From Octopus vulgaris (lineage: Eukaryota), in the NCBI GenBank assembly GCA_951406725.2, contig OX597830.1:21948001-22012000 (forward strand): a DNA stretch of 64,000 nt. The letters are read 5' to 3'. Positions 15,501-61,572 of the stretch are shown piece by piece; position 1 is the first letter of the stretch, and the number at the start of each line of letters is the position of its first letter. A program made the position numbers and the translations under genes. The notes beneath the pieces were generated by a model. It worked only from the letters and a program-made list of their open reading frames with translations. It ran no database searches and was not told the origin of the DNA.

Positions 15501-15777
15501 ATGATGATGATGAAGTCTGAGGAAACTAGTGGTGTCCTACACCAACAAAATTAAGTCAGTTTATTTCACAAATCAATATAATAGTTCCAAACATGGGCAC
15601 AAGACCAGAATTTTAATAGGGAAAGGATTTGTTAAGAAATATATATATATTTCTCATCCGGACCCAAGGCCAAACAGTTTTGAAGAGAAAGGGACCTCAA
15701 TTACATCAACCCTAGAGCTTTCCTGAAGTGCGCATACATTTTTTTTAGCAGACTCTGTATGCATATGTATGTATATA

Positions 15778-15859
<82 letters not shown>

Positions 15860-16018
15860 TAAATACGAGATTCTTATCAATCAAATCCACTCAAAAGGCT
15901 TTGATCAGCCCAACAGTATAGTAGAAGACACTTGCCCAAGGTGCCAAACAGTGGGGCTGAACCTGGAACCATGTGGTTGGGAAACAAGCTTCTTACCACA
16001 CAGCCAGCCATGCTTGTG

Positions 16019-16073
<55 letters not shown>

Positions 16074-23400: not shown

Positions 23401-26400
23401 GGGAAATTAAAAAGGTTTAAATGTTGTGGCTGCATGGTTAAGAAAGCTTGCTTTGCAACCATGTGGTTTTGGGTTCAGACCTGCAGTGCGACACCTTGGA
23501 CAAGTGTCTTCTACTACAACCCTAGGCCAGCCAATGCTTTGCAAGCGAATTTGTTAAATAGAAACTTTGTGAAAGCCCATCGTGTATGTGCATGTGTGTG
23601 TGTGCGCGCGCCTGTGTGTGTCTTAATATTTGCCACCCCACTACCACTCAACAACTGCTGTTGGTTTGTTTATGGCCATGTAACTTAAGTGTTCAGCAAA
23701 AGAGAGCAATAGCAAAAGTAGCAGACTTCAAAATAAGTACTGAGGTTGATTTGTTAAACTAAACACCTCACAGCAGTGCCCCAGCATGGTCGCAGTCCAA
23801 TGACGAAAATAAGAGAAGATAAAAAGAAGATCAGTTTCAAGTTTTCCATGATGAGATGAATTGCTGGGATCTGCAATCCAGTGTCTTTCCATTTGTCACA
23901 TTAAGATATCCTCATATCATCCGTGAAAGCCAATTAGATGCTTATTTTATTTGTTATTATATTTACGGAGGTGTACTTGCATAGCAAGTGATTTGATCTG
24001 AGATCGTGTGCTGAAACGTAAACAATTGCAGCGTGGAAGGTGTTTGTAAGCCATTTAAGAAACACACAAAAGCCGTTCAATTCACTTCAACATTTAAGTT
24101 TATTTTGTCAGTGAACAGGTCGCGGATTTTAGCGACAAAAATATTTTGACAAAATAAACTTAAATGTTGAAGTGAATTGAACGGCTTTTGTGTGTTTCTT
24201 AAATGGCTTACAAACACCTTCCATGCTGCAACTGTGTTATATTATATTATATATATTATTATATTTGTGTGAAAGCGCATGGCTCAGTGGTTAGAGTGTC
24301 GAGCTTACGATCGTGAGGTTCAGAGTTCAATTCCAAGACTGGGCTGCGTGTTGTGTTCTTGAGCAAGACACTTTATTTCACGTTGCTCCTGTTCACTCAG
24401 CTGTAGAAATGAGTTGCGACGTCACGGGTGCCAAGCTGTATCGGCCTTTACCTTTCCATTAGATAACATTGGTGGTACAGAGAGGGAGGCTGGTATGCAT
24501 GGATGACGGCTGGTCTTCCATAAATAGCCTTGCCCAGACTTGTGCCTCGGGGGGGAAACTTACTTGGTCATTCATGACCAAAGGGGGTCTCCTCCTCAAT
24601 TATATTCTACATGGGAACTGGAAAACCAGTGCTATGAGTCCTAAGACATATGACTGGTGTGCAGGAAATGATGATGATGATGGCTGGTGATAAGGAGGGA
24701 TGTAGAGGCTATCAAGAAAATCGTCATGGGCTCACAAGGCTAACCCATGCTTTAGCAGGAAAAATGGCCTTAAAACACTTGCTTTTTTCACAGCATGTAG
24801 TAACTAAAGTAGTGCTGGATTAACAATTAATCAAAATAAGGACCTGCTTAGGGCATCGAGGGAAGAGAACACCACAGAAATGGTAAATGGTTTACAGCAC
24901 AAAAGAAATCACTTTAAACTTGCTAAAATAATATTAAGGATGCCTTATCTCTACTAAGTGTAGAAGCAGATGTGTTACACAAGATTAATCTTGAGGATCT
25001 GATCAAAGACTCTGCAATTTAAAAAAAAGTAGAAAACCTTTCAAATATAAATAAAGTGGAAGCACACAAAAATAAAGATTATTTTCCACCTTACTGTTAG
25101 TTTTGTTTCATTTTGAAGAATGAAAATTTATTTTATGGTTTATCATTGTTTATATTTTGAATTACATATATATGAGAGGCACCAAAATCTTGTAAGTGCC
25201 AAGGGCCTCTCTTGGGTTTTAATCCACCTCTGAACTAAAACCAGTATTCTTTTATTCTTTTATTTGCTTCAGTCGTTTGGCTGTGGCCATGCTGGAGCAC
25301 CACCTTTTAGTCGAACAAATTGACTTTTTCTTTGTAAGCCTAGTACTTATTCTATCAGACTCTTTTGCCGAACCGCTAAGTTACAGGAGATGTAAACACA
25401 CCAGCATCGGTTGTCAAGCGATGGTGGGGGCACAAATACAAACACATACATACGACAGGCTTCTTTCAGTTTCCGTCTACTAAATCCACTCACAAGGCTC
25501 TGGTTGGCTCGAGGCTATAGTAGGAGACACTTGCCCAAGGTGCCAGGCAGTGGGACTGAACCCAGAACCATGTAGTTGGTAAACAAGCTACTTACCACAC
25601 AGCCACTCCTGCACCTAAGATTTGGACCTAAAAGATTATAACAATGTATATGGTAAGAGAACAAAGGATTCTTACTTGGTGGTTTACCCTTCTTTGTTTT
25701 AGATGTGTCTTCAGAACTGGAAAAAAAAAAAAACAGAAATATCACATTAGAATATTGACAAATCCAGGCAATATATCCAACATAAAATTATTACGTGTGA
25801 CATATCACAAGCAGTAAAACAGTTAGAATATTTACATGTGATGTATGAATTACAGACAATACAACATGGTTAGGATATTGCTACATGTGACATCATCATC
25901 ATTTAAGGTTCACTTCTCCATGCCTGCATGGGCCAGATGGAATTTATTGAGGAAGATTTTCTTCTACAGCTGAGTACCTTTCATGTCATCAACCCTCATC
26001 AGTTTCCAGGCAAGATAATATTTCTCAATGGGCAAACATGTTTTTCGTGGAAGACTGGAGACAAACAACACTGCTTGTATGATGATGCTCATTTGCAATC
26101 ATCACATGATGACAAAACAAGAATATAAACACACACATACGTACATGTGAGTGTGTATATAGTACACTTATTATTATTAATAATGGTAATGGTATCTATT
26201 TAACTTTTATATTGTGCGGTGCAGTACTGTACTGTACTATACTATATTATATTATGTTATATTATATTATATTATATTATATTATATTATATTATATTAT
26301 ATTATATATATACAATGGGCTTCTTTCAGTTTCTGTCTATCAAATCCACTCACAAGGCTTTAGTCAGGCTGGGGCTATAACAGAAGACACTTGCATAAGA

Positions 26401-29400
26401 TACCTTGCAGTAGGACTGAACCTTGTAGCCATGCGGTTCAGAAATTTGCTTCTCAACTACACATCCACGCTAGGAAAAGGGACGGGACTATTAGAGAAAG
26501 AGGACAGAGTTATTAAGAGAAGGGAGCAGGGCTCCTGGAAAAAGAGGACAAAAATATGTAAAGAATCCAATAATAAACTTCACCTTTTGGTCTTGACATC
26601 TTTATTATCTTTCTTCTGTTCAACCTTCTTATCCGTCTTTTGGTCTTTCTGGCTTTTAGCACCAGCATCAGCTTCAGTAGTGCTGACAGTGGTGGACGTT
26701 TTGCCATTTGCTTGCTCACTTTTCTTTTCATTTGTCGCTAAATCAGCATCCAGGTCATTGTGGATGTCATCAACGAGTACAATTAACGACTCGTTCTCTT
26801 CAGATTTTGCAGCTGTTTTCAGCAGCGAAGACTTGTTAATGACTTTCGAAGCGTTAGACGCTGCATCTGGCTCTGAAGTACTTTGGTTTAAGTTATTGTT
26901 ATTTTTGTTTTCTGGCTTTTCTGACACCTGATCTGAAGAAGAACCATTGCTGGCCTCTTTAGAACCAGCATCTTCAAGCTTGCTTTCCATCTGTCCTGCA
27001 GGGTCACTGGTCACTGAAGAAGAATTATTGGTGTCTACGGTTTGATCTTTACTCTCAGCCTTGATCCCTGACTCCACTTTGTCTCCAGTGTTCAACTCTT
27101 CCTAAACAATATACAAACAATTGTACGCATTAAGAGCACTACTCAACACATGCATGTAAAGAGATGGAGATTGGAGATGGAGTGTGGAGATGACGGTGTC
27201 TATAATTGTATCATTTTGTTTCCAATACTTGTTTCTTTGTCTCCTCTATAATCAATTCTGTAAATATCCTACTGGCTTTGTAATTTGTCCTTGCAATATG
27301 CCCTCGTCCATGGCCCTTGCAGTCAAGAAAAGGAAATATTATTGTTGCTGTTGTTGTTATTGAAGGCAGTGAGCTAACAGAATCTTCGGTGTGTCAAATA
27401 AAATACTATGCAAACATTTCTTCAGGCTCTTTATGTTCTAACTTACTACTTGTACTTGTGGCGACATTCACCCTGGGCGGGTTGAGTCGGCTTCTTCTAC
27501 CGAGTAGTGTCAGAGCTATGCCGTCGGGAACTTCGGTTCTTGGTAGGGCCACCTAAGGAGGATTGGTCTGACACCGAGTGGTACTAGGATCACAACCCGG
27601 CAGACGGGGCTCTGGTGAAAATCCTCGGAGTGTCTGTTTTGGCAACCGGCAGCTCCTCGGTCGTTCTGTCCCTGCGACTGCGGACAATCTGCAGCAAACA
27701 GGATGTCTCTACATATTCCCACGAAACTTCTTCTTTATGTTCTAAGTTTAAATGCCACTGAGATCAACTTTGCTTCTCGTTCCATCAGGGCCAATAAGAT
27801 AAATACGAGTTAAGCACTAGTAATCAACTAGTTCTCTACTCCCAAAATTTGATACTTTGTACCTATAGCACAAAGAATTATTATGAGTGTTAAAACAGAA
27901 TCATTAAAGTATCAGAGTAAACAAAAAAATGCCTTGTAGTATTTGCTCTGGTTTTTCGCCTTCTGAGTTCAAATCTGAGCAAGGTAAACATTGCATTTGC
28001 CAAGGTCAGCTTTGCCTTTCATCCTTTCAGGGGTCAAAAAAAATAAGTATCAACTGAGCACTGGGGTCGTGTCAATATAATCAACTAAACCCCTTGCTCG
28101 AATTTGCTGGCCTTGCACCAAAATTTGAAACTATTATTATTATTATTATTATTATTAAGGCATAGATCTGGTAGAATCGTTACTGTGCTGGGCAAAATGC
28201 TTAGAAGTATTTCATCCATCTCTAGGTCCTGAGTTCAAATTCCACCAAGGTCAACTTTGCCTTTCATCCTTTTGAGGTCGATAAAATAAGCACCAGTTGA
28301 GTACTAGGGTCAATGTAATCAACTTATCCCCTCCCCTGAAATTACTGGCCTTGTGTCAAAATTTGAAACCATCATCATCATCACAACAATAATAATGTTA
28401 CTATCATATTAGCAATATTATTATTATTATATTGATAATTTTTACTTGTCACAAGGCTGCAAATTTAGAGGAAAAAACAGTCATTCAAATCAACCCAATG
28501 CTTTACTGATATTTATTTAATCAACTAAAAAACCTTTTTTTTAATTCTGGCTGGATTTGAACTCTGATGGTAAAAGAGGATAACTAAATACTGCAAGACA
28601 TTTATTCCACCACTACTACCACCACCAAAAACAACAATAACAACAACACTAATCTAAGGCAATGTAAGAATCTAATGGCTGTGAAATTAGAGTAGGTTGA
28701 CTGCAGGTAACAGTCATCTCCTGATTTCTAGTTCTACTACTACTTCTACCACCACCACCTCCTCCTCTTCAAATATACTGATGCCTTGAACCAACAAGGA
28801 AGTCTCTATGTGGTCAATCAACCAATTAGAAGTGGTATCCAAATCTTCCTCCAATCTAAAATAAGGAAAGGACACGAAGAACAGACACTTCTGGATACTC
28901 CCAAAAAGACAAGGATGGCCATGGATGGAATGTCACTGGTCGCAAGTCTGCTTAATCAAGTTTGATCTAGAGCTAAATAGCAAAAAAAAAAAAAACCTCA
29001 CACATGTCACAAGTGAGCAGAAAAGACATCCAGCTGTCAGAAAAAACAATTTGTCAATCCACCAATGTTATAACAAGTGGCAAGTAAATTACTGAATCAG
29101 AAAAAATGCAGGATAAAAACAGAAAAATTTTCAAATTATCTACACTGACCTTCTTTTCAGCCACGTTTACAGATTCCTCTAGAAAAAAAAAAAGAAAGAA
29201 AAATGCTTTAGAAATATGATACAAAAAAATTTAACAGTTTTGTTGTTTGCTGAAATTTACTCCCTTCATTTTCGAAAATAACAAAGGATTTTTTAGTAAA
29301 ATAACTTTGTTGTTAATTCATTATTAAGCTGGAACATAAGCAGTCATGAAGTTTTTATTTAACCTTTTAGCATTCAGGCCATTCGGTCAAATGCAACACT

Positions 29401-31230
29401 TACTTATTCATTCACATTATTTTGAATTAATCAAGCGTTATCTCAAAGCTTCAAGAAGATTATGATGATGTGATTGTTTATTTCTAGAATGACATTGTAG
29501 AGCAGGTGCGAGAAGCCAAATTTGGCCAGTTTGAACACAAAACAAGTAGAAAATTGGGGCTGGATATGGTCAGTTTAAATGCCATAGCAGGGAACCAGAG
29601 GCAGTCTCAGGCAGTTTGGTTCCAAAACCCAGATGACGCAGGCTTGATTACATGAGAATTTACTTTCAAAAGTAAATTAACAACACATCATCATCATCAT
29701 CCAGTGTTTTAAATCCAAGTTTTCTCCCTGTTAACAGGGGTGGCCAGATCTACCTCAATGCCATAGCAACCAAGGTAGGCAGGTGCAGCCCACCCCAACC
29801 TTTAGGTTGGCTGGTGCCCATTCTCCTTTGCTATCATGAGGCTTTTTTTGGAGCTGGATTTTCTACGGGGAGCATTGTCTTACTTACCCACAACCTCAGT
29901 TTCTAGACATGAGTGGTCCTGAGACCAAGGCCTCTACCACAATTTTTAAGAAATGTGGTGGAAAACTAGCTCAGGAAGGCAAGGATAATAACACCAAAAA
30001 TATATTATCATAAAAGAGATTCTTACGTCCTTTTGTTTTCTTGTCATCTGAATTGGCAGGACTGAAAAATAAAAATTTTACTCCATGACATCACCATTCA
30101 TTAATATTATTATTATCATAATCTTCATAACAACAATCATGCAGGGGCACCACCTTGAAGGGTTTTAGCTCATCAAATCGACCCCCAATGCTTATTCTAT
30201 CAATTTCTTTTGTGACTGCTAAATCATAGAGACATAGGTATGGCTGTGTGGTAAGAAGCTTGCTTCCCAACCACATGGTCCTGGGTTCAGTCATACTTGA
30301 GCAAGTGTCTTCTATTACAGCCTTGGGCTGACCACAGCCTTGTGAGTGAATTTGGTAGACAGAAACTGAAGAAGCCAGTTGTATATACATATATATGTGT
30401 GTGTGTGTGTGTTTGTCTTTCACCATGGCTTGACAACTGGTGGTGTTGTGCTTACAGCCCTGTAATTTAGCAGCTCAGCAAAATACACTGGGAGGGTACC
30501 AGGTTTAAAAAAATGAAAATACTAGGAGGTCGATTCATTTGACTAAAAAGTCTTCAAGGTGGTGCTCCAGCATGGCCACAGTCTAATGACTGAAACAAAT
30601 ACAAGATAAAAGATAAACCAAAAGCAGTTGTCAAGCAGAGATGAGGGACAAACACACACATACATACATATATAACAGACGACAGAGATAGAAAATGGAA
30701 TACACAAGAAATTTTATTGTTCACAATGATCACTTCAACACATTCTGCATCGATAACCTCGCAGGTAGGAAACTATACAACTAGTGGTGGTGCATCCCTC
30801 AGTGTAGAAGTGTCTCATCAGGAGACGTAATCCAATAAAAACTGTGCAATTATCATGGATGACACCAGGTAGTCATAGGGAGAGAATATGCTTTATTGGC
30901 ATACTACTAGGAACAAACCCAACACTTAAATATTAACTTACATATTAACTTACATATTAACTTATACTTAAATATTAACTTATACACCTACACACAGTTT
31001 CTGGCTTTAAGGGTATTGTGAAAAGCCTAGTTGGAGGCCCAACCTTCTGATTTCGTTTACAGGGCCCAGAAAAACTAAAGGACCACTGCAATAAGTGTTT
31101 GAATCTGAGAGAGGAATATGTTGAATAAAATCATAATTAACTGATCCTCCTGTATTTTCTTTTGTTTAAAGCCAGAATCTTTTCAGCACCCTTTCGTGTG
31201 TATGTATGTATGTATGTGTATGTATGTATG

Positions 31231-31273
<43 letters not shown>

Positions 31274-31442
31274 TATGAAGTACCATGGAAACCAAACCAA
31301 TTCTGATCGTGAGGAAATTTTACTTTGCTTTGAAACAAGTGGGGATTGGTGAAAGGAAAGGCATCTAACTGTAGAAAATCTGCCCTAACAAATTCTCTCC
31401 AATCAGTTTGAACAAGGAAAAAATGGACATTAAAACAATGAT

Positions 31443-31476
<34 letters not shown>

Positions 31477-34400
31477 GTCATCCCATAAATAATGTGGTTT
31501 TTTCAAATGCATGAACTAAAACTCTGATGGACACGGGATAAACTACCTGCATCAACTCGCTATGAAAGCAGTTGTACTTATTGTTAGTGCAAGTTTTAAA
31601 AAGGCAGATCGATTTTGACAGTTATTTTTTCAAAGCTATAATGGAAATGACAAAGGAGCATATTTGGCATATTTTGTTTTATGAGTTCAACAAAGGCAAC
31701 AACACAACAGAAAGTGTGAGGAATATTAATGCAGTATATGGGGATCAGATAATAAGTGCAAACCAGTGTCAATGGTGGTTCCAGAAATTCTGAGCCTGAA
31801 ACTACAACCTACAAGACGAACATCGTCCTGGAAAATCTGCAGAGCTCAATGAGGATGTCCTGTAACCCCTGGTGGAACAAAATCCCATTGTAACTACTGA
31901 GGAACTAGCAGAGAAGCTTGGATTTGGTCATTCAACCATTGACTGACACCTGTGTGCCATCGGAAAACTCAACAAATTGGATCAATGGGTTCCTCACAAA
32001 CTTTCCAAGTCTAATCTTGTGCAGAGAGTGAATGTGTGTTCTCCTTTGCTGTTATGTCTCACGAATGAACATTTTCTTGGACCGAATAGTGACTGGTGAT
32101 GAGAAATGAGTTCTCTATAAAAATGTCAAGTGCCAAAGACAGTGGGTAGGAAAAGGAGAAACACCAGCACCCCAAGCTAAAGAAGGTCTTCACCCATATA
32201 AGGTGTTGTTGGATATGAAAGGTTTAGTCTATTTTGAACTTTTAAACTTAAACCAAAAGATAACAAAGGAGATCTACAGCAAGCAGCTTGAGTAGCTAAA
32301 GTCAGCACTAGAAGAAAAACGACCATCTTTGGTTTCAAGATGAAAGATGCCCTTCCTTCAGGATAGTGCTCAGCCACATACAGCAAGGATAGGATTCCAG
32401 AGGCTGGAGCAGTTTGAATAGGAAATGATACCCCACCCACCATATTCATTGGACATTGCCCCATCTGATTATCATTTATTCTACACTCTTCAAAATCATT
32501 TGAACAGAAAAAACATGAATTTTGTAGTTGAGGTCAGAACAGTACTGGAGGAGTATTTTCCATTACGGGCAAGTGAATTCTGGAAGAGGGGCCTTGCAAG
32601 TCTACCAGATAGATGGAAGAGCATTGTAGAAAATGGAGGAGAGTATATTTTGGATAAAAAAAGAACTTTGTTTATATTGATTTTTAAAAATAAAAGAAGT
32701 ATAAACAAACTGTATTATTTATGGGATGACCCAATATATATATATACATAACCAAAATGTGTTTGAACTGCTAGCAACTCACCACCAGCATATAACTTGA
32801 AGCGAAAAGAAAATGTAAATCTGGTAACTTTTGAAGCATGTTGTGGTGACAGAACTGTTTAACCACTTCTAATTAAAATCCTGACATAATCTTAATCCTT
32901 ACATAGCTTTCATACCTACATTCCTACAATAAACTACTTTGGTTTTGAAGCAGAACAATGCCAATTGTCATTGAACCATAGGAACCAAATACATGTTACT
33001 GGAATATATTTATTCTGGATTAATTGAACCATATGAACTAAATACATGTTATTAGAATACCTTATCAATTCTAGATTCTATTAAAAACTGAGAGATTAAG
33101 TAAATTCCGTAAGATATTTAACCTGTTGTCATTTTCAGGACTTTTGTCAACTCAGCATAATCTTTTTTACTATAGGCACAAGGCTTGAAATTCTGGGGGA
33201 GGGGGCTAGTCGATAACCTGAACTCAGGTGCTTGACTGGTTTATATTTTATCAACCCTGAAAGGATGAGAGACAAAATCAACATCTACAACAATTGAATT
33301 CAGAATGTAAAGAGGGAAGAAATGCCACTAAGATTCTGTCAGCTCACTTCTTCGTCATCATCATCACCACCACCACCACGTTCGGATGGTGATTTTTACG
33401 TGCCACCAGCACAGGTATCACAACTACAATCTCCATTTGATTTTGATTTTTGATGTTGATGTACTTGACTCAATAGGTCTCCTCAAGCACAGCAGGTCGC
33501 CCTACAATCCAAGGTAAGCACAGCTTGGAATGTTTTTTTCTATTCACATTGTTTTGAATTATTCATACATTATCTCAAAGCATTGAGATTTTTATCATTT
33601 AACTGAGGACTGGCGAACCAGCTGGCTGATCTGGCAGAGTTTTTACAGCTGGATGCCCTTCCTAACACTAACCACTCCGAGAGTGTAGTGGGTGCCTTAC
33701 GTGCCACCGGCACAAGGGCCAGTCTGGCAATGGCTACACTCAAATGGTGTTCTTTATGTGCCACCCGCACAGGAGTCAATACAACAGGCTTCTTTGAGTT
33801 TCTGTCTACCCAATCCACTCACAATGCTTTGGTCAGCCCGAGGCTACAGTAGAAGACACTTGGCCAAGGTGGCAAGTAGTGGGACTGAACCCAGAACCAT
33901 GTGGTTGGGAAATAAGCTTCTTACCACACAGCCACAACCCACAAATCATGAAAGGCAAAACAGGATTCGAATGGAGAACACACAGAACTGGAACAGATAC
34001 TACAAGACAATTAAAGCAGGTACTCTACAAAAAGAACAAGAACAAGGAAGAGAAGGAAAAAAGAACAAGAGGAGGAGGGAAAAGAAAAAAGAGAACAAAA
34101 AAGAAGCAAAGTCCATCCTCTCCTCACCGTGGTGGGGACGCTGGCAACGAGTAGTGTCAGAGCTATGCCGTAAGGAACTTTGGTTCCTGGTAGGGCCACC
34201 CAAGGCGGATTGGTCTGACACCGAGTGGTATTAGGGCCACAACCCGGCAGACAGGGCTCTGGTGAAAATCCTCGGAGTGTCTGCTTTGGCAACCGGCGGC
34301 TCCTCGGTCGTTCTGTCCCTGCGTCTGCAGACAATCTGCGGCAAACAGGATGTCTCTACATGTGGGATTGTTGGGGACCGCTTATGAAATCCACATATTC

Positions 34401-34564
34401 CCACAAAACTTCCTCCAACTTCTACGAGATACCTCGAGGGTGGTAGAAGAAGCCGACTCAACCCGCCCAGGATGAATGTCGCCACAAGTAAGGAGGAGGA
34501 AGATATATTGAAATAGTGAGTAAGGGAACATGGGTAGTTGCAGTAACCAACCACAAAACCCAAC

Positions 34565-34601
<37 letters not shown>

Positions 34602-37600
34602 CAATACCTTTTGGTCTTTCCTTCTTTACTGTCTCTCTTCTGCTCAGTTTTCTGGATTTTAGCAGGGGTGGCACCTTCAGTGGTATTCGTAGTGATGCCC
34701 TTTTTGCCACCGGCCAGCTGTTTAATTTTCTTTCCGCTTGCAGTTAAATCAGCATCCAGGTCGTTAGGGATATCATCATCAAGTACAATTATTGACTCGT
34801 TCTCTTCTGATTTCACTGCTGTTATTCAAGAATGGAAAGCCCTGGTTAATAATTTTCAATGCAATGGTAGGTAATAGTGTGTGTTGGTGGCGGTGGCAGG
34901 GTGTTTGTGATGAATAGTAGTGTATTGGTTGTAGTAATGCAGGTGGTAGAATACTGGTGGATGGTAGTGTGTAGGTGATAGTTGTATATTGGCAGTAGTG
35001 GAGTGGTGGTGGTGGTAGTAATAGTAGAGTAGTTGTGGGTGGTCCTGTACAGGTAAAAATAGTGGTGGTGGTGGTAGCGTGTTGGTGGTAGTAAAGTGTT
35101 AGTTGGTATTAGTTTATTTGTGGTTGAATTGTGTTAGTAGAAGTAGAAGGTTGGTGGTGAATGATAGTGTATTGGTTGTAGTAGTGGCTGTGGTAGTATG
35201 ATGAGAATGCAAGTGTGGTGGTGGTGATGTATTATTGCATAGTAGTGGTAGAAGTGTGTTGATGGTAGTGTGAAACAAGTGGTAATAATGTGTTGGTAGT
35301 GGTACAAAATAAGCAGCTGTAGCGAAAGAGATGGGAGATCAGATAAGAACAGGAGAAAGAAAGAGAGAGGGGGTAAGTAGCCCCAACACACACAACCTGT
35401 ATGTAGTTACTCAACCTGCTAGAAATAGCAGCCATTTCTCGATCAAATCATACTCTACCATCTTGAAAAAAAAAAGAGGACACATTGAATAATGCAGACC
35501 AAAATATTCTTAAAAGGACAACATGATACTGGGTGGAATACTTTTGATTACAGGGAAGCTCAATCAAGACTAATTAACAGTAACTAGTTAGCAACTGTGG
35601 TTTACAATTTCAACACAAGGCCTACAGTTTTGAAGGGTCTAGGGTAACATGATACCACTGATCCTAGAACATAACTGCAACTTTATTTTATCAACCCCAG
35701 GAAGGCGGAGAGTAAAGATGACCCCAGCAGAATTTGAACTTGGAACACTAAGTCTGCCTCATCATCAACATTTAATATCCACTTTTCCATGCTTGCATGA
35801 GTCAGAGAGGAACTTTTTAAGGCAGATTTTCTATGCTAGATGCCCTTCCTTTTCACTAGCCCTCACCTGTTTCCAAGCAAGACAATACTTCCCCATGGCT
35901 AGACATGTTCTCACAGAATACTGGAAATGAATGCAACTGCTCGAATGGAAAATGACATTCATTTACAACTTTCACATGATGTCAATACAAGGAGAGTCAA
36001 GCATCCACACACTTACACACGCATATATACATACATGTGTATATGTGTTAAGTGATGAAATAGAAGAGGTGAGCAGTTATGCATATCTTGGTCAAGAAGT
36101 GACTATGAGGCATGAGATGGAGAATGAGATCTCGCGAAGGGTAAGAGCAGGATGGAGAGCATTCAACTCAATGAAGGATGTGCTGAAGGCAAACCTAGAC
36201 AAGGCAAGTTGCGCCAACCTCTTCAACAGTACAGTCTTGCCTGCAATGCTATGTGCATGAGAGACTTGGGCCTTGACTAAGAGAGAACAACAACATCTGC
36301 TTATGGCGCAGAGAGCCATGGAAAGGTCAATGCTGGGAATTTCGCTAAGAGATCACATCCAGAATGAAATCAAAGGCAGAACTGGAATGAAGGACATCAT
36401 CGCAGAATACCACCATGCAAAGAAGCTATGACAGACTGGTCATGTCGCAGGTTCACAGATAATCAGTGTACCTGTGCCGTTGTCAAGTGGTACCTGCGCG
36501 AGCAGAAGAGACCACTCGGAAGACTGCCAATCAGGTGGAAAGATGTTTGGAGCAACATGGAGGAGAATGGCAAGAGCACAAGGGGAACGTAGCAAATGCT
36601 GTGGCCAGCAGATCCAACTCAGCGACAACAGCCTGGCTGATCCAGGTGATGTTTGTGTGTGTGTGTGCATATTTTTTTATATATTACTCAGTATCAACAT
36701 ACTAATTGGTGGACAAACCTAGGATTTATAAATTGGACTGGTGACAGCTTGTTAGGTTTGGATTACTTGGATTCCATCTAACAAAGGATAAATTCGGTAG
36801 CCTCAGGTATCTACCTGTACTGAGAGCTTATTAAGTTTTTTGCCTGGATTATCAATTCCTCTATGTATATATATATATACACACACAAAAGGTTTCTTTC
36901 AGTTTCCATCAACCAAATCCACTCACAAGACTTTGGTTAGGTTGGGACTTATAGTAGAAGACACATGCCCAAGTTGTCACAAGGCATTTTGGTCGATGCC
37001 AAACAATTCTGCCAGCGCATCAGCTTATAGTAAACAATAATTGTAACAATACATCCGAGATACAAACATTTGATCTTTTGCACTGGTTATCCCGACCAGT
37101 ACCTCATCAAGCTCTGGCCAACACCCCACCAAACTCTGGCCAAGACTCCACCAAGATTTCAACCAAACTGTAACAATTAAAAACCAACAAACCTAAGGAT
37201 TCAGCAGTGCCATCTTTCTTTGGTAGCTGTACAACGAAAGAGAAAGTAGAGGTCAGTTAAGAGGTGGAGAGTAAAATGTTCAGATCATTGGAACAATATA
37301 AGACAGCGGATAAAATGAAGTCTTTGTCTTCACAGATGTGCAGAGAAGTGTATGAATAGGATGAAGTCTTTAACAGGAATTTTTTTTTTTGGGGGGGGGG
37401 GTTTATACACACCTTGCAACATGTATGTATATAGTCTGTTTATAGAAACATCAAAACTGAGGTGTTTTTGTAAGTTTAATAGTTTGAACAAGAATAATGT
37501 CATTAAGTAAACAAAAGAGCCCTGTGAGATCATTCGATCTGCTAGAAATAGCAGCCAAATACCTTTCTAATTACACTCTAGAAACTTAGAAAATGTAGTC

Positions 37601-40600: not shown

Positions 40601-43600
40601 AAGAAGATTTTCATTGACATCAGGCAACATTATTGGCTTGAACATATGACCTCATTCATCTATTTACTGCCACTAACACTATTTCACAGTGGTTGCTGAT
40701 CAAACACCTACCAGAATATAAAAGCTATCAGCGTCTGATATCCTAAAACAGCTATGGCCAAGGGTTTAGTTGTACAGATCTACCCCTCACTTACTTTTTT
40801 CTTTTTTGCTGAACTGCTAAGTTACAGAGCCATAAACAAACCAACACTGGTTGTCTGGCAGTGGGGAGACAAGCACAAACATAAAAACACATTTACGTAT
40901 ACACATACATACATACAACAGGCTTCCACACAGTTTCTGTCTACTAAATTCATTCATAAGGCACTGTTTGGCCCAGGGACATAGTTGAAAACACTTACCC
41001 AAGATGCTGTATAGTGGGATTGAACCTGGTAAGAAGTATTAAGAGCTAAATCTAGCTTTTAGAGCAGTGGTTCTCAAATGAGGTTGATATAAGATTATTG
41101 GGGGTCCACACAAGTGAAATAGTAAATTGGATCTACAGAAGTATTTTAAGGGTCCATAAAAAAAACTTTTCTTTTCATCATCATCATCATTTAACGTCCG
41201 CTTTCCATGCTAGCATGGGTTGGACGGTTCAACTGGGGTCTGGGAAGTCCGAAGGCTGCACCAGGCCAGTCAGATCTGGCAGTGTTTCTACAGCTGGATG
41301 CCCTTCCTAACGCCAACCACTCCGTGAGTGTAATGGGTGCTTTTTAGATGTATTTATTGCAAGAAACAGCCAAGTTTCTTTCTCTGATGTTTTACATAAC
41401 TCAACCTAAACACGTGAGTGTGTAATAAACAAAATAGGAATTCTTGAAAGAAACATCTCTAAAGCTAAATACTAAATGGCTATGGGGGTCCACCAGAATA
41501 AAATAGTAATCAAAGGGGTCCATGGGTGAAAAGTGGTTGAGAACCACTGATTTAGAGGAATGAGTTGAATATAATGACTAGACATAAAAATGTTTGGCTT
41601 AGTGAGATTAACATAAAAATGTTTGGCAGGAGAGATTAACAATGTTGGTAGAGGTATCTTATGTGGATAAATGATACATAATTGATACTGTGAGGTTGTG
41701 ATGGAGGTGGAAAATACCCATGTGAAAGGTAGACTAATGTGTCTTGGGGAAAATTTAGACCATTTTTGAAAATGCTTGGCTCCACAGATGATGATGATGA
41801 TGACCTGATTCAGGATTTAGAAACATGCAAAGATGAAGTAATGAGGGAGACTCCACATGGTACTCCACCCTGCTAGTAATAGCAGCTAAATCTCCTTCAA
41901 ATCACATCCCACCATCTAAAAAGGCTGGAAGAAAACATTGTGTGATATAGTCCCGATTATACTATACCTGAAAAAAGAAAATGAAAAAGGAAAAAGATGA
42001 ATGATCCTCGCTGAAATGCTTTTGGTCATAAATCTGCTGGATTAGGAAAGGCATGGGATTAAACAACAACAATACACAGGGATATTGTGATGCACCAATC
42101 CAACTTGTTTAGGACATGAAAAAAATATAAACATTAAATCAATGACGATAATAACAATGATGATAATGAATAGACTGACTATGTTGGTATTCTTGAAACT
42201 GGCCTCAAGGGCAGCAATATTTCAATAGGGTTTTTGGTTGGTTGTTTTGAGGGGAATTTTTAACAGCTTTTGAGAGAAGCTGATATAAATGTAGTAGTTA
42301 TTTATCCACCAAATGGAAGTGAGTGAGGTACCTTAATGTGAGGTACCTCAAATCATGTACATCTGCTCGTGAGCAGAGGTACATCATTTCTTCTACAAAA
42401 TAAAACTTTATACTTTGATACCGCTGCCGACGACCGAGAACTCGCCGCTTCGTGCCTCGTCGATAACACACGGACACACACGCTCGTGGTCTTTTTTCCT
42501 GGCCGACTACTACTCAGACTTACTCCCCGCCGACCGACCGGCCGCACTCATGCTTGATACCGCTGCCAACGACCGAGAACTTGCCGCTTCGTGCCTCGTC
42601 GATAACACACGGACACACACGCTCGTGGTCTTTTTTCCTGGCCGACTACTACTCAGACTTACTCCCCGCCGACCGACCGCACTCATGCTTGATACCGCTG
42701 CCAACGACCGAGAACACGCCGCTTCATGCCTCGTCGATAACACACGGACACACATGCTCGTGGTCTTTTTTCCTGGCTGACTAGCTGACTACTACTCAGA
42801 CTTACTCCCCGCCGACCAACCGGCGCACTCGTGCTCGATACCACTGCCGACGACCGAGAACTCGCCAGAACAAAATAAAACTTTTTAAAATATTACAGTG
42901 ATCAAAACCAAGAAGGTAAAACTATAGACTGACTTTACCTTCTCAGTATTACAAACATCTTCCAAAGCAGTGGTAGTCACCATATTTTCCTCTGGGGTCA
43001 TTTTACTCAAATTGTTTTTGTTTTCTACCTTCACAGACACTTGGCCAACAGTGCTGGCCTCTTTGGAACTGTTACCATTGCTGGTGTCATCAAGCTTAAC
43101 TTCCATTGGTTCCACAGGGTCACTGGTCATTGTAGAAGAATTATTGGCATCTACGACAACTTCATCTCCAGTTTTCAACACTTCCTAAACAATATATAAA
43201 CAATTCCATACATTTATAGCTCTATCCAACACATGCTTATATATATATATAGCCATCAACACCACAACCACCATCAGCAGTTTCATATCCATTGTCTATG
43301 TTCTCATGGTCTTTCACAGATATTAGCTTAGCAAATAATTGGAGACCTACTCAAACCCTTTAGCACTCAGATTACTGTCAAATGTAATTTTTATTTATTC
43401 CCATTGTTTTGAATTAATCATACATTATCTCATAGCTTTGAGAGTTTGATTAATGTGATTGTTTATTTTTAGAATGATATCGTTGGGTAGGTGTAAGAGG
43501 CTGGATCTAGCCAGACTGAACATAAAACAAATAGAACAATTTGGGTCACATACGGCCAATTTAAATGCTAAAGGGTTAATACCAGTAATCCCTCAGCTGG

Positions 43601-46600
43601 ACTCACTACTCCAATTTTCTTAAGGGTTTGGTTTGGTACTAGATTTCATCAGTTGTTCTCAAAGAGAGATGCAAAAAAACACTAAAATATAACCATCCCA
43701 GAAGGGTTTCAAGTGTTGGCATATTCAATCTATTCATCATCATCATTATTGATTTAACATGTTTTTTTTTGTTTTTTTACATTCCTTACACAAATTGAAT
43801 TGGTGCAAAACAACATCTTTACATATTATTTTAGCCCTCAAGTCTTTACCGATCAAAAACATTTCAGCTAAGACCATATATTTTCTCTTTTTATTTTTAT
43901 TTTCAGGTATAGTGTAACTCATACTACATTATCCAATGTCTTTACCCTATATTTTAGACAGTAAGGAGTGATTTGAGGGAGATTTAGCTACTATTACCAT
44001 CAAATCTTTCTCATTACTTCATCTTTGTAAGATTCTATATCTTGTATCAGATCATCATAGTCATCCCATCCATCCATCCATTCACTTTGTCCACTCTCTA
44101 TTCCCAGAAGGTGGTGGGGGCCCTGAGGCATCTCCTCCATAGGATTCTATCAGAAGCATCTATCATTACACGATAGTGGGATTTGAAATTAGAATGCAAT
44201 GAACCAGAGCAAATACTACAATACATTCCATTTGAAGCTCTAATGATTCTACCAGTCCACTGCTGTAGCATTAAGCATAGGCATCTTTCTTAAGCATTAT
44301 GGACTCGTTAGGACTAGCTTACTGGTTCCCATGCCATATATATATATATTTACCCCTGGACAAGAAGCCAGTCTATCACAAGATTATTCATTTTTGCCAG
44401 CTGAGTGGACTGGAGTAAAGTGTTTGCTCAAGATCACAACGCATCATCCGGTCCAGGAATTGAAACCACAATCGTACAATCATGAATCCAACACCCTAAC
44501 TACTAGGCCACACACCTCCACCCACTGCTCTAAACTCGTATTTTATCTACTAACTCCAGATGGATGAAAGGCAAAGTTGACCTTGTCAGGATTTGAACTC
44601 AGAATGCAAAATGTGGAAATAAATACTGCAAGATATTTTGTCTTATGGTCTAACAACTGCCAATTTGTTACTTACATGCAAGGTTGTCAAGACATAAACC
44701 AAATAAAATGAGTAATGTAACATTAGGATCTGAGGAAACTAGAGATGGTCTGCATTGGCTATTAGTAAATATAGAAGGTTTGTAAAGTGGAGTAAATCAG
44801 TTTACTATAATGAAGAGGAAAAGTCTAATATTTCAGACAACAGGACCCTTCATCAGAGAAAACTGAAAGGTTTTCTGACAGTATTGAATAGATTGAAAGT
44901 AGTAAGAGAAAATATTGAAAATTAAAAGGCAGTGGAAAATAAAAGAAGAGGAGTTAACAAGGAGAAACAAATGTTAGTAGAAGACAACTAATTATGCTGT
45001 TATTAGGATTGAAGAAATAAAGAAGCAAGTTAGAACAGTAACAAAAAGGGGAAATGGTAGATTCAGAGACAATTCTTGGTACAAAATGGTTCCATTTATA
45101 AATATAAGCATAGCTGTGTGTGGTTAAGAAGTTTGCTTCCCAGCTACAATGGTTCTGGATTCAGTCATATGGTATGGTACCTTGAGCAAGTGTTTTCTTC
45201 TATAGCCCCAGATCAACTAAAGTCTTGTGACTAGATAAGGTAGATTGAAACTGAATGAAGCCTGTTGTATACATATGTGTGTGTGTGTACGTCACCTTGT
45301 TTTTGACATAGCATGATAGTTGTAAATGAATGTCACTGTCATACAAGCAATGCCATTCATTTCCAATATTCAACAAAAACATGTCTGACCATGAGGAAAT
45401 ATTACCTTGCTTGAAAACAAGTGAAGGTTGGCAATAGAAAGGAGGAAGGGTGACCCATGCAAGCATGGAAAAGTAGGCATTAAAACAACAATGATGGTAA
45501 TTTCTCTTTCATCCACCTATATGGGTGATGACCATGCTTTCAATAATCAATGGCAACAAAGTAATGTTTATTTTTATTTTTGCTAATAAACAGATGGCTT
45601 TGAACGTACTCAGCTCCCTCTTCCATTCCTAGCTTGCTCAAACACTCTGAGCCCTTTCCTGGTTTGCATTGTCCTCCAACTGATCCCCTTCCACCTTGCT
45701 GCAACAAAGAGGGTTCAGAAGCTGTTCATCAACCATTTTTGGTAAAGTGACCCCCACAAGCAAGACTGGGCTCTGTGTTGGAGCACGTGGATACTGGGTA
45801 ACACAGTACAATTGAGGCCTGTGCATAGGACCATGTTTTGCCAACAAATACATACATACTTCCATGTATACATACACACATCAATAAGGGTGCTTCTACA
45901 TGGTTACTCAACCTGCTAGAAATAGCAACCAAATCTCCCTCAAGTCTCTATGTTTAAAAAAAAAGCTGGAATAGTCAGGGTTGGAATGCTTTTTGACTGT
46001 AAAGTACTCAATCTTTCTCTTTATCTATGAGGATTTATCCCAATTTATAAAAGCCTCCAACATAGCGCCCCCTTCCAAAAATGGGCAACATACCTTACCC
46101 TAGGAACTACCATCCTATTGCTCTCCCTACAATAATTGTCATTTATAAATAATAGGCATGAGGCATGCAATTTTTGAAGTGAAGGGGACCAGTTGATTAT
46201 ATCAACCCCAGTACTTGACTGGTACTTTAATTTATCAATTCTGGATGGATGAAAGGCATAAATCAAACTTAGCAGGATTAGGAACTCAGAACATGAAGTG
46301 AGGTGACTGAATATTGCAGAACATTTTATCCAACATTCTGCCAACTAACCTCCCTTCAGAATAAAATTAATAATTTCTTTCAAATTCTGGCACAAGACTT
46401 GTATTTTGAAGGGAGTGGGTGAGTCAATTGCATCAATTCAAGCATTTCACTGGTACTTTATTTCATCAACCCAAAAATATTAAAGGCAAAGTTGACTTTG
46501 GCAGGATTTTAAACTCAAAATGTAAAGAGTCAGAAATAATAATAATAATGATAATCCTTTCTAATATGGGCATAAAGTCTGAAATTTGAGGGGAGGGGGT

Positions 46601-46770
46601 AGGTCAATCATATCAACTCCAGTACTTGACTGGTACTTAATTTATCAACCCTGAAAGGATGAAAGGCAAAGTCAGCATTGGCAGAATTTGAACTCAGAAC
46701 ATTGTGATAGGCGAAATACTGCTAAGCATTTTGTCCAGTGAGCTAACAATTCTGCCAGCTTGCTGCCTTA

Positions 46771-46801
<31 letters not shown>

Positions 46802-49714
46802 TATTCTCAGACATGACAGTGTTGGGACTTATATACAATGGAAGCTATAACAACACTATGAAATTACAACAGAAAAAACAATGGTATAGGCACACCCTAG
46901 AAAAGGTCACAGAAAATGAGAAAGTAACCATACTCTGGGATATGCCAATACACACAGTGAAATCAAGGCTAATAGACTGGATGTAGTTGTCAGAAATCAC
47001 CAAGAAAAAAGATGCCTTCTAATCGATGTATCAATACCAACAGATGATGTTTCTCTAAAAGAAATGGAGACACTTTCAAAATACAAAGATCTGGAAATAG
47101 AGGTAACTCGAATGTGGAGCCTAAAATCAGAAACAATTCCTATAATAGTAGGTGCATTAGGTATGATAAAAACATTCAGACAAATACATAACAAAAACAT
47201 CAGGACTTACAAATATATAGCACTACTATATACAGAAAATAGCACTACTAAGCGACACACATATCCTATGTAAAACACTTTCAATACAGTGGAAATAAGA
47301 GCACCACAAGCCATGGCACATACCCAAGGCACACAGAGCTGTGATCAGTGCAGTGAAAGCATGTGATAAAACTAAGACTACTGAATAATAATAATAACTG
47401 GTTGGACCCGTGAAAAATTCACATGAAACATAAAAAATGTAAGCATATGTAAATTGTGTGCCAGTGCCATGAGAAATGTTTCTATATTGTAACAGTTACA
47501 GAATATAGAAAGTGTAAAACCAGTAACCATATATAATCCAACCAAAATATCTCAGTTACACAAACATAAGCAGAATTACTATTTAGCCTTAAACAACATC
47601 ATACGAGGGACGTTCAATAAGTAATGCCTCTGACCCACTTGCAGTTGTTTGATCTAGGTGAAATTTTGCATGTGCAATCATTTATATCTCTATAGAGTAA
47701 GTGGCAAATTACAGCTCTGAATTAATTGTGGTTTCTGATTTACAGGTGTTTGAACCGAGTCAAGTGTGAAATGGAGCCTGTTGAGTGTCAAGCAGTGATC
47801 CGGTTTTTGTATTTGAAAGGACGCACACCACGGGAGACTTTTGATGAAATGAAAGTAACTTATGGTAATGATGCCCCATCATATGACCTTGTAAAACGCT
47901 GGCATCGTGAATTCAAACATGGTCGGAACTCTGTGGAAACAGCTCCCAGATCTGGTCGCCCCCTTCTGCCATTGATGAGGCATCTGTCCGTCAAGTTGAG
48001 GCTGCTATTTTGGAAGATCGACGCATAATTATTCGCCAAATAGCCCATGAGGTCAAGATTAGTACCGGGTCTGTGGAAACTATCATTCATGACCATTTGC
48101 ATATGCAAAAGGTGTCTGCCAGATGGATTCCCAGGTTGCACACGCCTTTCCAGAAGCAAGAACGCGTCGAGAGCTCGAGGGTGAATTTGGAGATGTGCCA
48201 AGAAGATGAGTCAAAATTTTTCAAAAGACTGATTACACAGGATGAAACCTGGGTCCATCACGATGATCCAGAGACCAAAGCCCAGTCAATGCAGTGGAAG
48301 CACCGTGACTCACCCCCTCCAAAGAAGGCAAGGGTGCAGCCCTCCACTGGCAAGGTCATGCTCACAGTCTTCTGGGACCAGGACGGAGTAGAGATGACAG
48401 ATTTCCTGGCGAAGGGTACCACAATTGCAGGAGCCTATTATGCTTCACTTTTGAGGAAATTAAGAGAAGTTATCAAAATCAAGAGGCGGGGCAAGATCAG
48501 CAAAGGCATCCTCCTCCTGCAGGACAACGCTCCGGTCCACAACTCGCTTGTCGCCAGATCAGAAGCACAGGCGTATGGCTATGAACTCCTCCCCATCCCC
48601 CCTACTTTCCTGACCTTGCACCCTCTGATTTTCACCTCTTCCCAATCATGAAGTTGTTTTTGAAAGGAAAGCGTTTCCCAGATGATGCAGCCTTGATTTC
48701 TGAAGTCACGTTGAGGTTGGAGGACCAAGCTGGGTTCTTCTACAAAAACGGTCTCCAGAGCCGCATCAAACGATGGGAGAAATGCGTAACTCTGGGTGGT
48801 TCCTATGTAGAAAAAGACTAACTGTGCCAAGTTTTGTTCCTCTACTGCTATGGGAAGTGGGTCAGGGGCATTACTTATTGAACGCCCCTCGTACATATTC
48901 AAAGAACCTTCTTGGTTTAGTGGTACGGAACTTTCTTCTAGTATTCTTTTACTTGTTTCAGTCATTTGATGGTGGCCATGCCGGAGCACTGCCCTTTAGT
49001 CAAAGAAATGGACCCCTGAACTTATTCCCTGTAAGCCTGTTGCTTACTCTATGAGTCTCTTCAGCCGAACAGCTAAGTGAAGGTGCATGGCTTAGTGGTT
49101 AGGAGTATTCGGCCTACAATCATAATGTCATGAGTACAATTCCCAGTGATGTGCTGTTCTTGAGCAAGGTACTCTACTTCACCTTGCTGCAGTCCACTCA
49201 GATGGCAAAAATGAGTTGTAACTGTAATTCAAAAGGGCCAGCCTTGTCACATTTTGTGTGAGGCTGAATATCCCTGAGAACTATGTTATGGTATGCATGT
49301 CTGTGGAGTACTCAGCCACTTGCACGTTAATTTTATGAGCAGACGGTTCTGTTGATCAGATAAACAGGGGCCTTGTTGTTGTAAGTGACAGAGTGTCATT
49401 TTTTTAAAAAAGAGTGAAAGCAAAGGAAATGTTCCATATTGTAAGGCAAAAATGTCACGTGTTTAGTCATAAGCAGTGAAAGCTAAGATGAAATAATTGC
49501 TATAATGCCATGTAGTGACTTTGCCCTGGACTCACAATCAGTTTGATAACAACAGCCTGCACATAGGTGTTTATCTGTCTTTGATTTAACAATGTCTATG
49601 TATCTGTGTATCAACTTTTCTTTCGATCTATGTATCTACTTTTCTTGCGATGTGATAAACATTTAAAAACACAAAACAAACGCTGTCACCACTCACTGTC
49701 TCTTTCATTCACTC

Positions 49715-49757
<43 letters not shown>

Positions 49758-50164
49758 TACTTCCTCTCTGAAACATTTGAAAACACAAAACAAACGTGGT
49801 CACCACTCACTGACTCTCTCTCTCTTTTTCTCACTTACTCTCTGTCCTCCTTTCTCTCGCTTTGCCACTCACTTCTTCTTTTGAAGTGTGACACACACTA
49901 CAGGTACGTACAAAAACAAACAAAACTAAGCATATTAATATTATCGATAATCCTTTCTACTACAGGCACAAGACCTGGAAATTTGGGGGAGGGGACTGAT
50001 CGATTACCTCAAACCCAGTGCTCAACTGGTACTTATTTCATTGACCCCAAAATGATGAAAGGTAAAGTCAACCTTGATGGAATTTGAGCTCAGAACATAA
50101 AGATGAGTAAAATGCTGCTATGCATTTCATCCAACATACTAACAATTCTGCCAGCTAGCCACCT

Positions 50165-50220
<56 letters not shown>

Positions 50221-52247
50221 CCTTTCTACATTAGGCATGAGACCTGAAAGTTTGAGGAGAGGGGTATGTTGATTGCATCAACCCTAGTATTCAACTGGTA
50301 CAGTTATCTTATTGACCCCAAAAGGATGAAAGGGAAAAAAATCAACCTCAACGAAATTTGAACTCATAATGTAAAACCAGAAGAAATGTTGCTGAACATT
50401 TTACAATAACAATAATAATCCTCTCTTCCATAGACTCAAGGCCTGAAATTTTGGTGGGAAGGGCTAATCGAACCCCCCCCCCCCAGTACTTTAGTGGTAT
50501 TATTTTATCAATGCCGAGGTTGACTTTGCCTTTCACCCTTTCAGAGGTCAATAAATTAAGCACCAGTTGCATTTTGGGATCAATCTAATTGACTGGCCCC
50601 ACTCCCCACAAATTTCAGGCATTGTGTCTATAGTAGAAAGGATTATTTTATCAATGCTAAAAGGATGAAAGGCAAAGTCAACCTCAGTGGAATTTGAACT
50701 CAGAACACAAAAACAGGTGAAATGCCACAAAGCATTTTGCCCAGTGTGCTAACAATTCTGCCAGCTTGCTACCTTTTTTTTTTTTTTTTTTTTTTTTTTG
50801 CAATAATAATAATAATAACCTTTCTACTATAGGTACAAGGCCTGAAATTTCAGGAGAGAGGACTAGTTGATTATACTGACCCCATTGATCAACTGGTACT
50901 TATTTTATTGACCTTGAAAGGATGAAGGGCAAAGTTGACCCTGGCAGAATTTGAACTCGGCACGTAAAGACAGACAAAATACCGCTAAGCAGTTTGCCCA
51001 CCATGCTAATGATTCTTTTCTACTCTAGGCACAAGGCCCGAAATTTTGGGGGAGGGGTACCAGTTGATTAGACTAACCCCAGTACACAACTGGTACTAAT
51101 TTATCGACCCTGAAAGGATGAAAGGCAAAGTCAACCTCAGCGGAATTTGAACTCAGAACATAAAGACAGACGAAATACCGCTAAGCATTTTGCCCAGCAT
51201 GCCAATGATTCTGCCAGCTTACCGCCTTTGCACTAATAATAACAACAATAAGCTATACTCACCACACTTTCAGCCATATTTGAATTGTCTACAAAAGAAA
51301 AAGAGGGAATAAAGAAAAACTTTTAAAAGCTTGAAAATGAAATATCTGAACAAACATTGTTACTTTCAAATAAACAGTAAGTTATAAACTCTTGAAAAGG
51401 TTGTTTCCTGATTTTCCACTCCACTACAGACAAATTACATTGGTCAATAAGTATTTTTCATCAAGCATATGTCAAGGTATACTCAGTGTAGTTTTTAATG
51501 CTGATTTCAAATACACAATTAGTTTTTTTTTGACATCACGTACAGTTTTCATGAGAAATTTTTTGTTTTGGTTTTAGCTCATGTGTGGAGGCGCATGGCT
51601 TAGTAGTTAGGGTGCCAGCATTATGATCGTAAGATTGTGGTTTCGATTCCTGGACTGGGCAACACGTTGTGTCCTTGAGCAAAACACTTTATTTCACATT
51701 GCTCCAGTCCACTCAGCTGGCAAACATGAGTAACGCTGTGATGGACTGGTGTCCCGTCCAGCTGGGGAACACATACGCCACAGAAACCGGGGCCCATGAG
51801 CCTGGCTAGACTTTAAAAGGGCGCACTTATTATTTATTTTTAGCTCATGCATTATATAGAGCTTCCAGTTGATGACATATATGCATGTATTACATTTACA
51901 TCATGGAAACATACCTTTAAAATAAACTGCATTATTCATTGCTGCATAGTTCAGAGGCAATATTTCATCATCTTAAATCAACCAATCAAAGTTTTGTCTG
52001 ATGAAATAGGTATTTCAACATCTTAAATTGTCGTCATAATTGGTCTGATGAAATATCTCATCAAATTCAATATAAGTGTAGACGCAGGAGTGGCTGTGTG
52101 GTAAGTAGCTTGCTTACCAACCACATGGTTCCAGGCTCAGTCCCACTGCATGGCACCTTGGGCAAGTGTCTTCTACTATAGCCTCGGGCCGATCAAAGCC
52201 GTGTGAGTGGGTTTGGTAGACAGAAACTGAAAGAAGCCCGTCGTGTG

Positions 52248-61560: not shown

Positions 61561-61572
61561 TTATTAAGAGTA

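Follow-up and report, generated by a model that had tools for sequence, protein, structure and literature searches.

A doubled exon block in a divergent SAFB paralog of Octopus vulgaris

A SAFB-like gene in a stretch of the Octopus vulgaris genome (contig OX597830.1, here C17, positions 21,948,001 to 22,012,000; 64,000 nucleotides (nt), hereafter the window) carries two similar sets of small exons, block A and block B, upstream of its RRM. The locus raises the question of whether the second set is a true copy of the first, whether both enter one protein and what the doubling does. The original prediction, made from the sequence, had described two paralogous modules that could be used singly or together to tune the length of an acidic region. 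Our analysis identified the doubled exon block as a real, old tandem duplication. The explanation that we regard as probable is that a frame-neutral block of five exons was duplicated in tandem in a divergent octopus SAFB paralog with no recognisable SAP, both copies being spliced into one mRNA and doubling a conserved, binding-type motif.

The doubled block and its transcripts

All exons of the window gene lie on the minus strand. The exons of the two blocks, the unduplicated exon before them and one intron end that bears on their history are listed by window position:

58753-58804, minus strand: exon U, upstream of the blocks and present once, 52 nt, phase 0 to 1, with AG/GT borders and an open frame
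51263-51288, minus strand: exon A1, 26 nt, phase 1 to 0, with AG/GT borders; paralog counterpart 32 nt with identical phases
42939-43184, minus strand: exon A2, 246 nt, phase 0 to 0; paralog counterpart 225-243 nt, 0 to 0
37193-37226, minus strand: exon A3, a 34 nt micro-exon, phase 0 to 1; paralog counterpart likewise 34 nt, 0 to 1
34819-34862, minus strand: last part of the intron that precedes A4; anchored alignment shows homology with the interior of exon B2
34608-34818, minus strand: exon A4, 211 nt, phase 1 to 2, spanned completely by a single contig in each of four sequencing runs
30027-30061, minus strand: exon A5, 35 nt, phase 2 to 1, found at the loose end of the X4 contig; paralog counterpart 41 nt, 2 to 1
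29150-29178, minus strand: exon B1, 29 nt, phase 1 to 0, the copy of A1, required by a 348 nt spacing in the contigs
26584-27101, minus strand: exon B2, 518 nt, phase 0 to 2, on the contig of A4 in three of the four runs
25676-25716, minus strand: exon B3, 41 nt, phase 2 to 1, equal in length to the paralog exon

Each of the eight block exons is preceded by AG and followed by GT. Block A (552 nt) and block B (588 nt) are both multiples of three, run from phase 1 to phase 1 and share one open frame, and the peptide matches first quoted between them are present. The blocks aligned with 91 of 172 residues identical (53%; score 308.5, with no score above 101 among 500 shuffles). Similarity extended into the introns directly upstream of A2 and B2 (49 of 64 nt matching; score 68, best shuffle 38), and the last micro-exons, A5 and B3, both use the donor gtaagaatc. 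Agreement of the intron sequence upstream of A2 and B2 means that the duplication happened at the DNA level, as the original prediction had held. Taken with their flanks, the short pairs A1/B1 (score 55 against 50) and A5/B3 (43 against 36) scored narrowly above all 200 shuffles. No counterpart of A3 was found in B (score 21, shuffle mean 21).

Transcript evidence came from contigs of four runs (X4, X9, X12 and X19, from four studies) aligned on exon A4 with short flanks. In each run, the upstream loose end of the contig that spans A4 equalled A3, showing A3 joined to A4 in 4/4 runs. The X4 contig extended 92 nt beyond A4, and its downstream loose end equalled A5. The contigs of X9, X12 and X19 contained a second match 348 letters after A4 that continued in B2 sequence, placing A4 and B2 on one contig in three studies, one of them from a second organism. 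The spacing is the sum of A5 (35 nt), B1 (29 nt) and 284 nt from the start of B2; it would be 319 if A5 were joined straight to B2 and 1196 if an intron were retained. A genome search with B2 returned three matches, all within the window, and no processed copy. The fit of the spacing and the absence of a processed copy from the genome therefore identify the contigs as spliced transcripts that contain A and B together. Two allele differences were seen inside A4, both synonymous. The A4 acceptor is weak and contains a tandem CAGCAG (34816-34821), of which the contigs take the first AG.

These contigs also bear on two other accounts of the locus. One holds that the blocks are regulated cassettes, expressed as A-only, B-only or A+B by tissue or stage, and we consider it quite unlikely. 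All three forms are in frame, 79 inverted repeat pairs of at least 40 nt across the introns could loop a block out, and there are branches nearby, with three of the four contigs beginning 1 nt before A3 and that of X4 ending 28 nt into B2. However, no contig broke where A5 ends or B1 begins, the branch points expected for A-only and B-only forms, in any of the four runs, and the two breaks that were seen fit A2 skipping, unspliced intron or single-base variants rather than skipping of a whole block. The starts before A3 fit an A1-A3 join, A2 being an exon that can be skipped alone without a change of frame, or a difference at the second-last base of A2, either allelic or an edited A; the end of the X4 contig in B2 fits an unspliced intron, an out-of-frame join or a variant. 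No skipping of block A or B was seen in the contigs of the four runs, which drop rare forms. The suggestion that A-only and B-only isoforms are the purpose of the duplication was thus not borne out, since A4 runs unbroken into B2 in X9, X12 and X19, although rare skipping could escape contigs. A+B is the form seen and likely the main form, and skipping of A or B may occur beside it at a low level. The other account, by which the doubling is an assembly artefact, a set of pseudo-exons or two separate genes, is extremely improbable. The region is a hotspot of recent duplication, with paralog pairs 92-94% identical over 5-7 kb, but copies A and B are only ~70% alike in DNA, and one spliced contig carries both in three studies and two organisms; block A has no RRM of its own.

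Divergence of the copies and the motif they share

In the paralogs, the corresponding exons show the phase series 1-0, 0-0, 0-1, 1-2 and 2-1, with lengths of 32, 225-243, 34, ~550-590 and 41 nt. Block A has the same phase series (26, 246, 34, 211 and 35 nt), whereas block B has three exons (29, 518 and 41 nt) compared with five in A. The last 44 nt of the intron before A4 match 40 nt inside B2, a score reached by none of 300 shuffles and none of 17 other acceptors. B2 thus consists of an A2-like part, then the 40 nt like A's intron (26852-26813, ending in the same AG) and then an A4-like part. A 10 nt look-alike stands at both ends of the gap in A and once in B2. Two Sepia protein records differ by exactly 14 residues beginning at the A4 boundary, as an old intron at the start of A4 would give, judging from protein records only. 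Block B probably derived from an A-like state with five exons. One in-frame deletion in B, by which the end of the intron with its old AG became exon sequence, is the simplest reading; a precise, cDNA-type loss of introns in B was rejected because B2 holds intron-like sequence and has no match to A3.

Each block contains one copy of a 22-residue motif:

~34810-34745, minus strand: motif copy 1 in A4, core SIIVLDDD, profile match of 28 bits
~26804-26739, minus strand: motif copy 2 in B2, core SLIVLVDD, profile match of 41 bits

SAFBs of mollusc, sea-spider and amphioxus origin contain the motif, which matches no Pfam entry. Among 121 fetched proteins, which include many isoforms and fragments, it was found once in 74, gave no pattern match in 47 and was found twice in none. 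In canonical copies the motif has two parts; the lineage of the window gene keeps the second part only, with Leu replacing His in the core. Comparison of A and B over 125 codons gave a synonymous divergence (dS) of 0.99 and a nonsynonymous divergence (dN) of 0.27, with dN/dS = 0.27 (bootstrap 0.14-0.47); for the motif (23 codons), dN/dS was 0.10. These ratios, a check proposed with the original prediction, show that blocks A and B are under purifying selection. Tuning of acidic length fared less well, as the strongest constraint falls on one short motif and the acidic excess is weak (35 D/E versus 25 K/R in the 184 residues of A; 38 versus 30 in the 196 residues of B).

The motif region has a hydrophobic core with acidic flanks and lies in a disordered region. 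The SUMO-interacting motif (SIM) pattern has only two matches in the protein model, at residues 129 and 318. SUMO is thus a tentative candidate for the motif's partner. The genome search did not identify any SUMO encoded whole in a single exon. A complex prediction with the motif and the RRM of cuttlefish P0062 (CAE1316081) scored 0.08, which speaks neither for nor against an interaction.

We propose the following course of events. Unequal crossing-over between flanking phase-1 introns would have copied the block in frame. An in-frame deletion in B would then have brought the body of the A2-type exon up against the final 40 nt of the intron preceding the A4-type exon, with loss of the 34 nt micro-exon. 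Selection would have retained the motif twice, and the disordered spacer would have drifted. The present protein would bind RNA through its RRM, and its paired motifs, ~190 residues apart on a flexible tether, could bind a partner with higher avidity, SUMO chains being a possible though somewhat doubtful partner. In our view, two binding sites on a flexible tether would be the most likely function of the duplication. The A/B pair would then preserve an exon-fusion event in which the old splice site can still be read.

Two further explanations concern what was kept and which state came first. The duplication could be tolerated filler, a longer disordered linker kept for being in frame, with a redundant second motif. 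This is possible but improbable. The region is of low complexity with many indels, B has lost A3 and evolution is fast throughout the gene (branch 1.25-1.46); against this, with dS near 1, the dN/dS ratio is 0.27 for the blocks as a whole and 0.10 for the motif, and both motifs still score on the family profile. Alternatively, the fused B2 could be ancestral, copy A having later been split by an insertion of ~8 kb and gained two introns and A3. Such a history would account for the match of A's intron end to the interior of B2 and for the 10 nt look-alike, which flanks the gap like a target-site duplication, and B aligns slightly better than A to outgroup proteins. However, it requires a new micro-exon to have acquired by chance the 34 nt and phases of the paralogs, plus two matching intron phases, and the cuttlefish record pair suggests an old splice site at the start of A4. 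We therefore rate it as unlikely, a little below the filler explanation.

Several points weigh against our preferred explanation of a five-exon duplication followed by deletion in B. Over the region before the motif, two outgroup proteins favoured neither A nor B (p 0.09-0.8), with B slightly better. The canonical paralogs have a long exon at the position of the intron end, and 11 nt of A's intron are found unchanged in one of them, a match without significance in the anchored comparison; the acceptor may have moved in A, leaving the intron end as a remnant of a longer canonical exon. Three of the runs are presumed to be RNA and one, from the second organism, is of uncertain kind, and contigs hide rare forms. 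The A5-B1-B2 join was deduced from the length of the 348-letter spacing, not from its sequence. With the alignment confined to A4 and its short flanks, the A1-A2, A2-A3, B2-B3 and RRM-exon joins were not seen directly, and the joins U-A1, A1-A2, U-B1, B2-B3 and A5-RRM fall outside the counted region. The dN/dS values come from simple counting, with dS near saturation in a low-complexity region. In the trees described below the window gene has a long branch (1.25-1.46), and the tested group was defined after the first tree. SUMO as partner is a lead from the pattern only.

The gene, its cluster and its descent

A 19-exon model starting from U remained open for 989 codons, with AG/GT at all borders and a stop at ~1373. 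Its remaining parts, and a candidate exon preceding it, are:

21501-23159, minus strand: RRM in two exons (23159-23068 and 21650-21501), with a Pfam RRM_1 match of 31 bits (E 2.2e-7) on the second exon
1373-18754, minus strand: eight further exons to the stop, encoding a K/S-rich linker, a short R/E-rich stretch and a Gly-rich tail
C17:22015129-22015224, minus strand, 3.1 kb outside the window: candidate first exon, 96 nt, from an ATG to a strong donor

The RRM is 58% identical to those of conserved paralogs. The edges of the downstream exons were set by hand from the sequence and tblastn, without read support. The R/E-rich stretch aligned with the cuttlefish ortholog (46% over 39 residues, E 0.015) and is much shorter than in canonical copies. 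No Pfam SAP match was found at the window gene, and a search with paralog and wider profiles, up to and past the neighbouring tektin gene, gave at best 5.5 bits among 596 candidate exons; held-out divergent SAPs, used as a control for the profile, scored 33-36 bits.

The candidate first exon has the length, the first three and the last two residues of the first 32 residues of the cuttlefish ortholog. It ranked 1/237 against that ortholog, not against P0008 (ungapped p=0.06), lies in a 3 kb stretch without CpG depletion (observed/expected ~1 at 66-69 kb) and has no Pfam match. It is likely to represent a decayed SAP exon. The X9 contig would extend 87 nt into it if all exons were included. Exon U is likely coding exon 2: its phase is that of the 40-46 nt exon 2 of paralogs, and it has a weak match to the cuttlefish ortholog directly after the SAP (p=0.03). 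A1 contains an in-frame ATG at a site that is GTG in B1, likely an internal Met. Its use as a start codon, which would bar a B-only form, was dropped, since U continues the open frame and there is a better candidate for the first exon further upstream.

Eight SAFB-like loci lie within ~360 kb (C17 21.95-22.31 Mb); the minus strand carries five of them and the plus strand three. A search with the conserved SAFB RRM exon gave eight matches among 14 scored candidates, all at C17 21.97-22.30 Mb. The plus-strand copies are closely related to two of those on the minus strand, with which they have stretches of 5-7 kb in common at 92-94% identity. A tektin gene (C17 ~22,026,700-22,039,900, minus strand; Pfam E 1.3e-33) stands between the window gene and the next SAFB locus. 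Each of the seven other loci has one acidic-motif exon and the window gene has two. Pfam SAP matches occur at six places in the cluster, of which four are intact, one has a TAG and one has a frameshift and no ATG; the window gene's nearest SAFB neighbour has none. An intact SAP is thus absent in 4/8 loci, and the RRMs of three of the eight are ~42% identical to the conserved type. Canonical SAFB, with which the window gene had first been compared, was the wrong standard: the gene is a divergent paralog in an eight-locus cluster, with no detectable SAP. One 370,689 nt contig in ENA (P0003) carries three different SAFB-type motif exons, a sign that another cephalopod may also have a SAFB cluster.

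Public annotation already includes several SAFB proteins of octopus, and named Octopus proteins match a neighbouring locus at mostly 94-100% per exon, which identifies the genome as that of an Octopus. We found no description of an octopus or cephalopod SAFB cluster or duplication in the literature covered, subscription papers lying outside it. One paper states that invertebrates possess only one orthologue of SAFB (PMC10901741), a printed statement that the eight-locus octopus cluster contradicts. In our view the cluster and the SAP-less paralog are of more interest than the duplication, which taken alone is clean but ordinary.

Trees were built from the RRM-to-C-terminus region with 17 rows, and again with 15 rows once P0009 and P0083, two long branches, had been taken out; P0062 was entered without its first RRM copy, and no non-SAFB outgroup was included. 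In both trees the window gene was sister to Sepia pharaonis P0102 and P0008 (100/99). In the 15-row tree it nested in the coleoid SAFB clade (100/100), and its placement among octopod canonical copies was rejected (approximately unbiased test, p ~1e-4). Both SAFB lineages are present on one contig in Sepia. The second SAFB arose before the octopod/decapod split. Members of this second coleoid lineage (Sepia CAE1316075/6, corresponding to P0102/P0061, and P0008) resemble the window gene in lacking the first half of the motif, in having Leu for His and in common C-terminal blocks. In contrast to its two blocks and missing SAP signature, they have one block, one motif and a divergent SAP (Pfam 21 and 32 bits). 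As decapod members have one block and a SAP, and none of the 121 proteins has a doubled motif, the block duplication and the SAP decay likely took place on the octopod side. Protein searches with B2 and with the RRM exon gave no matches, and further searches returned no octopus ortholog of the window gene.

Other features were seen in these genes and introns. The canonical Sepia pharaonis SAFB record P0062 (CAE1316081) has two tandem RRMs (residues ~395-590), which point either to another case of internal duplication in a cephalopod SAFB or to a fault in annotation or assembly. The Argonauta hians record GAB1609388 (P0005) is without most of the region between the SAP and the motif exon; exons in this region may be optional or lineage-specific in canonical copies. 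A 214 nt element occurs twice at 93% identity (27501-27714 and 34148-34361), in non-matching introns of B and A; it has no further copy in the 414 kb examined and is much younger than the block duplication. A 139 nt unit is repeated 3.2 times directly downstream of A2 (42415-42866). The intron between B3 and the RRM contains a near-perfect hairpin (24022-24235; 89 nt arms, 98% complementary, 36 nt apart), single-copy in the 414 kb, which we presume to be MITE-like (miniature inverted-repeat transposable element) and which is a possible editing substrate. The intron above U contains a weak GIY-YIG match (61287-61598, minus strand; E 0.0045, below the significance cut-off) and a broken stretch that we take to be transposase-like (~61950-62700, minus strand); we read both as transposon remnants.

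Comparison with known systems

SIMs have a hydrophobic core with acidic flanks (PMC3395311). The window motif shares the hydrophobic core and acidic neighbours; the SAFB family motif, in contrast, is longer, with a conserved DLDADL end and, in canonical copies, a His in the core. The duplication singles out this 22-residue SAFB motif, present from mollusc to amphioxus, as the part that selection kept twice.

SAFB is defined by a SAP, an RRM and an ER-rich tail, and in mammals and flies it keeps transposon sequence out of mRNA (PMC10901741). Like the family members (human SAFB1, SAFB2 and SLTM, fly Saf-B and worm PHM-2, the sole worm SAFB according to PMC12767362), the window gene encodes a SAFB-type RRM, a stretch that may correspond to the R/E-rich part and a Gly-rich tail. 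It differs from them in having no detectable SAP, a diverged RRM (58%), a short R/E stretch and a doubled motif. The gene is a SAFB by descent but, lacking the SAP, not a canonical SAFB. In function, the family is characterised by the binding of purine-rich transposon RNA and the suppression of its splicing into mRNA. In PMC10901741, deletion of the ER-rich part was the only construct that wholly failed to rescue, and in a preprint (10.1101/2025.09.09.675111) a SAFB2 fragment with the RE-rich domain was sufficient for microRNA cluster assistance. By analogy with these ER-rich and RE-rich results, a SAP-less copy could still act on RNA. Given that SAFB excludes transposon sequence from mRNA in mammals and flies, the octopus copies, with their repeated SAP loss and RRM divergence, are natural variants that could help to show which parts of the protein are needed for this exclusion. 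A far-reaching idea, which we put forward as a long shot, is that octopuses have expanded SAFB, which acts at the RNA level as a guard against transposon exons, into a fast-evolving cluster with the SAP shed in four of its eight loci, and that the window copy traded its SAP for a doubled SUMO-binding-type motif; SUMO-marked nuclear sites, rather than scaffold DNA, would then bring it to RNA, as a specialised arm of transposon or splicing control in a repeat-rich genome.

Frame-symmetric tandem exon copies are usually kept in one transcript (PMC8373072). Blocks A and B resemble such constitutive tandem exon duplications in being homologous tandem exons of one gene that both enter one transcript. 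They differ from the typical case in that five exons were copied at once, in a mostly disordered region, and in that the copies now have five and three exons, with a 40-44 nt switch between intron and exon. Mutually exclusive exons of the Dscam1 type are likewise homologous, frame-compatible tandem units; in contrast to these, both units of the octopus gene are on one contig, and use of one or the other was not seen. The duplication is therefore a known kind of event with a well-preserved history, and the protein is a new variant of SAFB.

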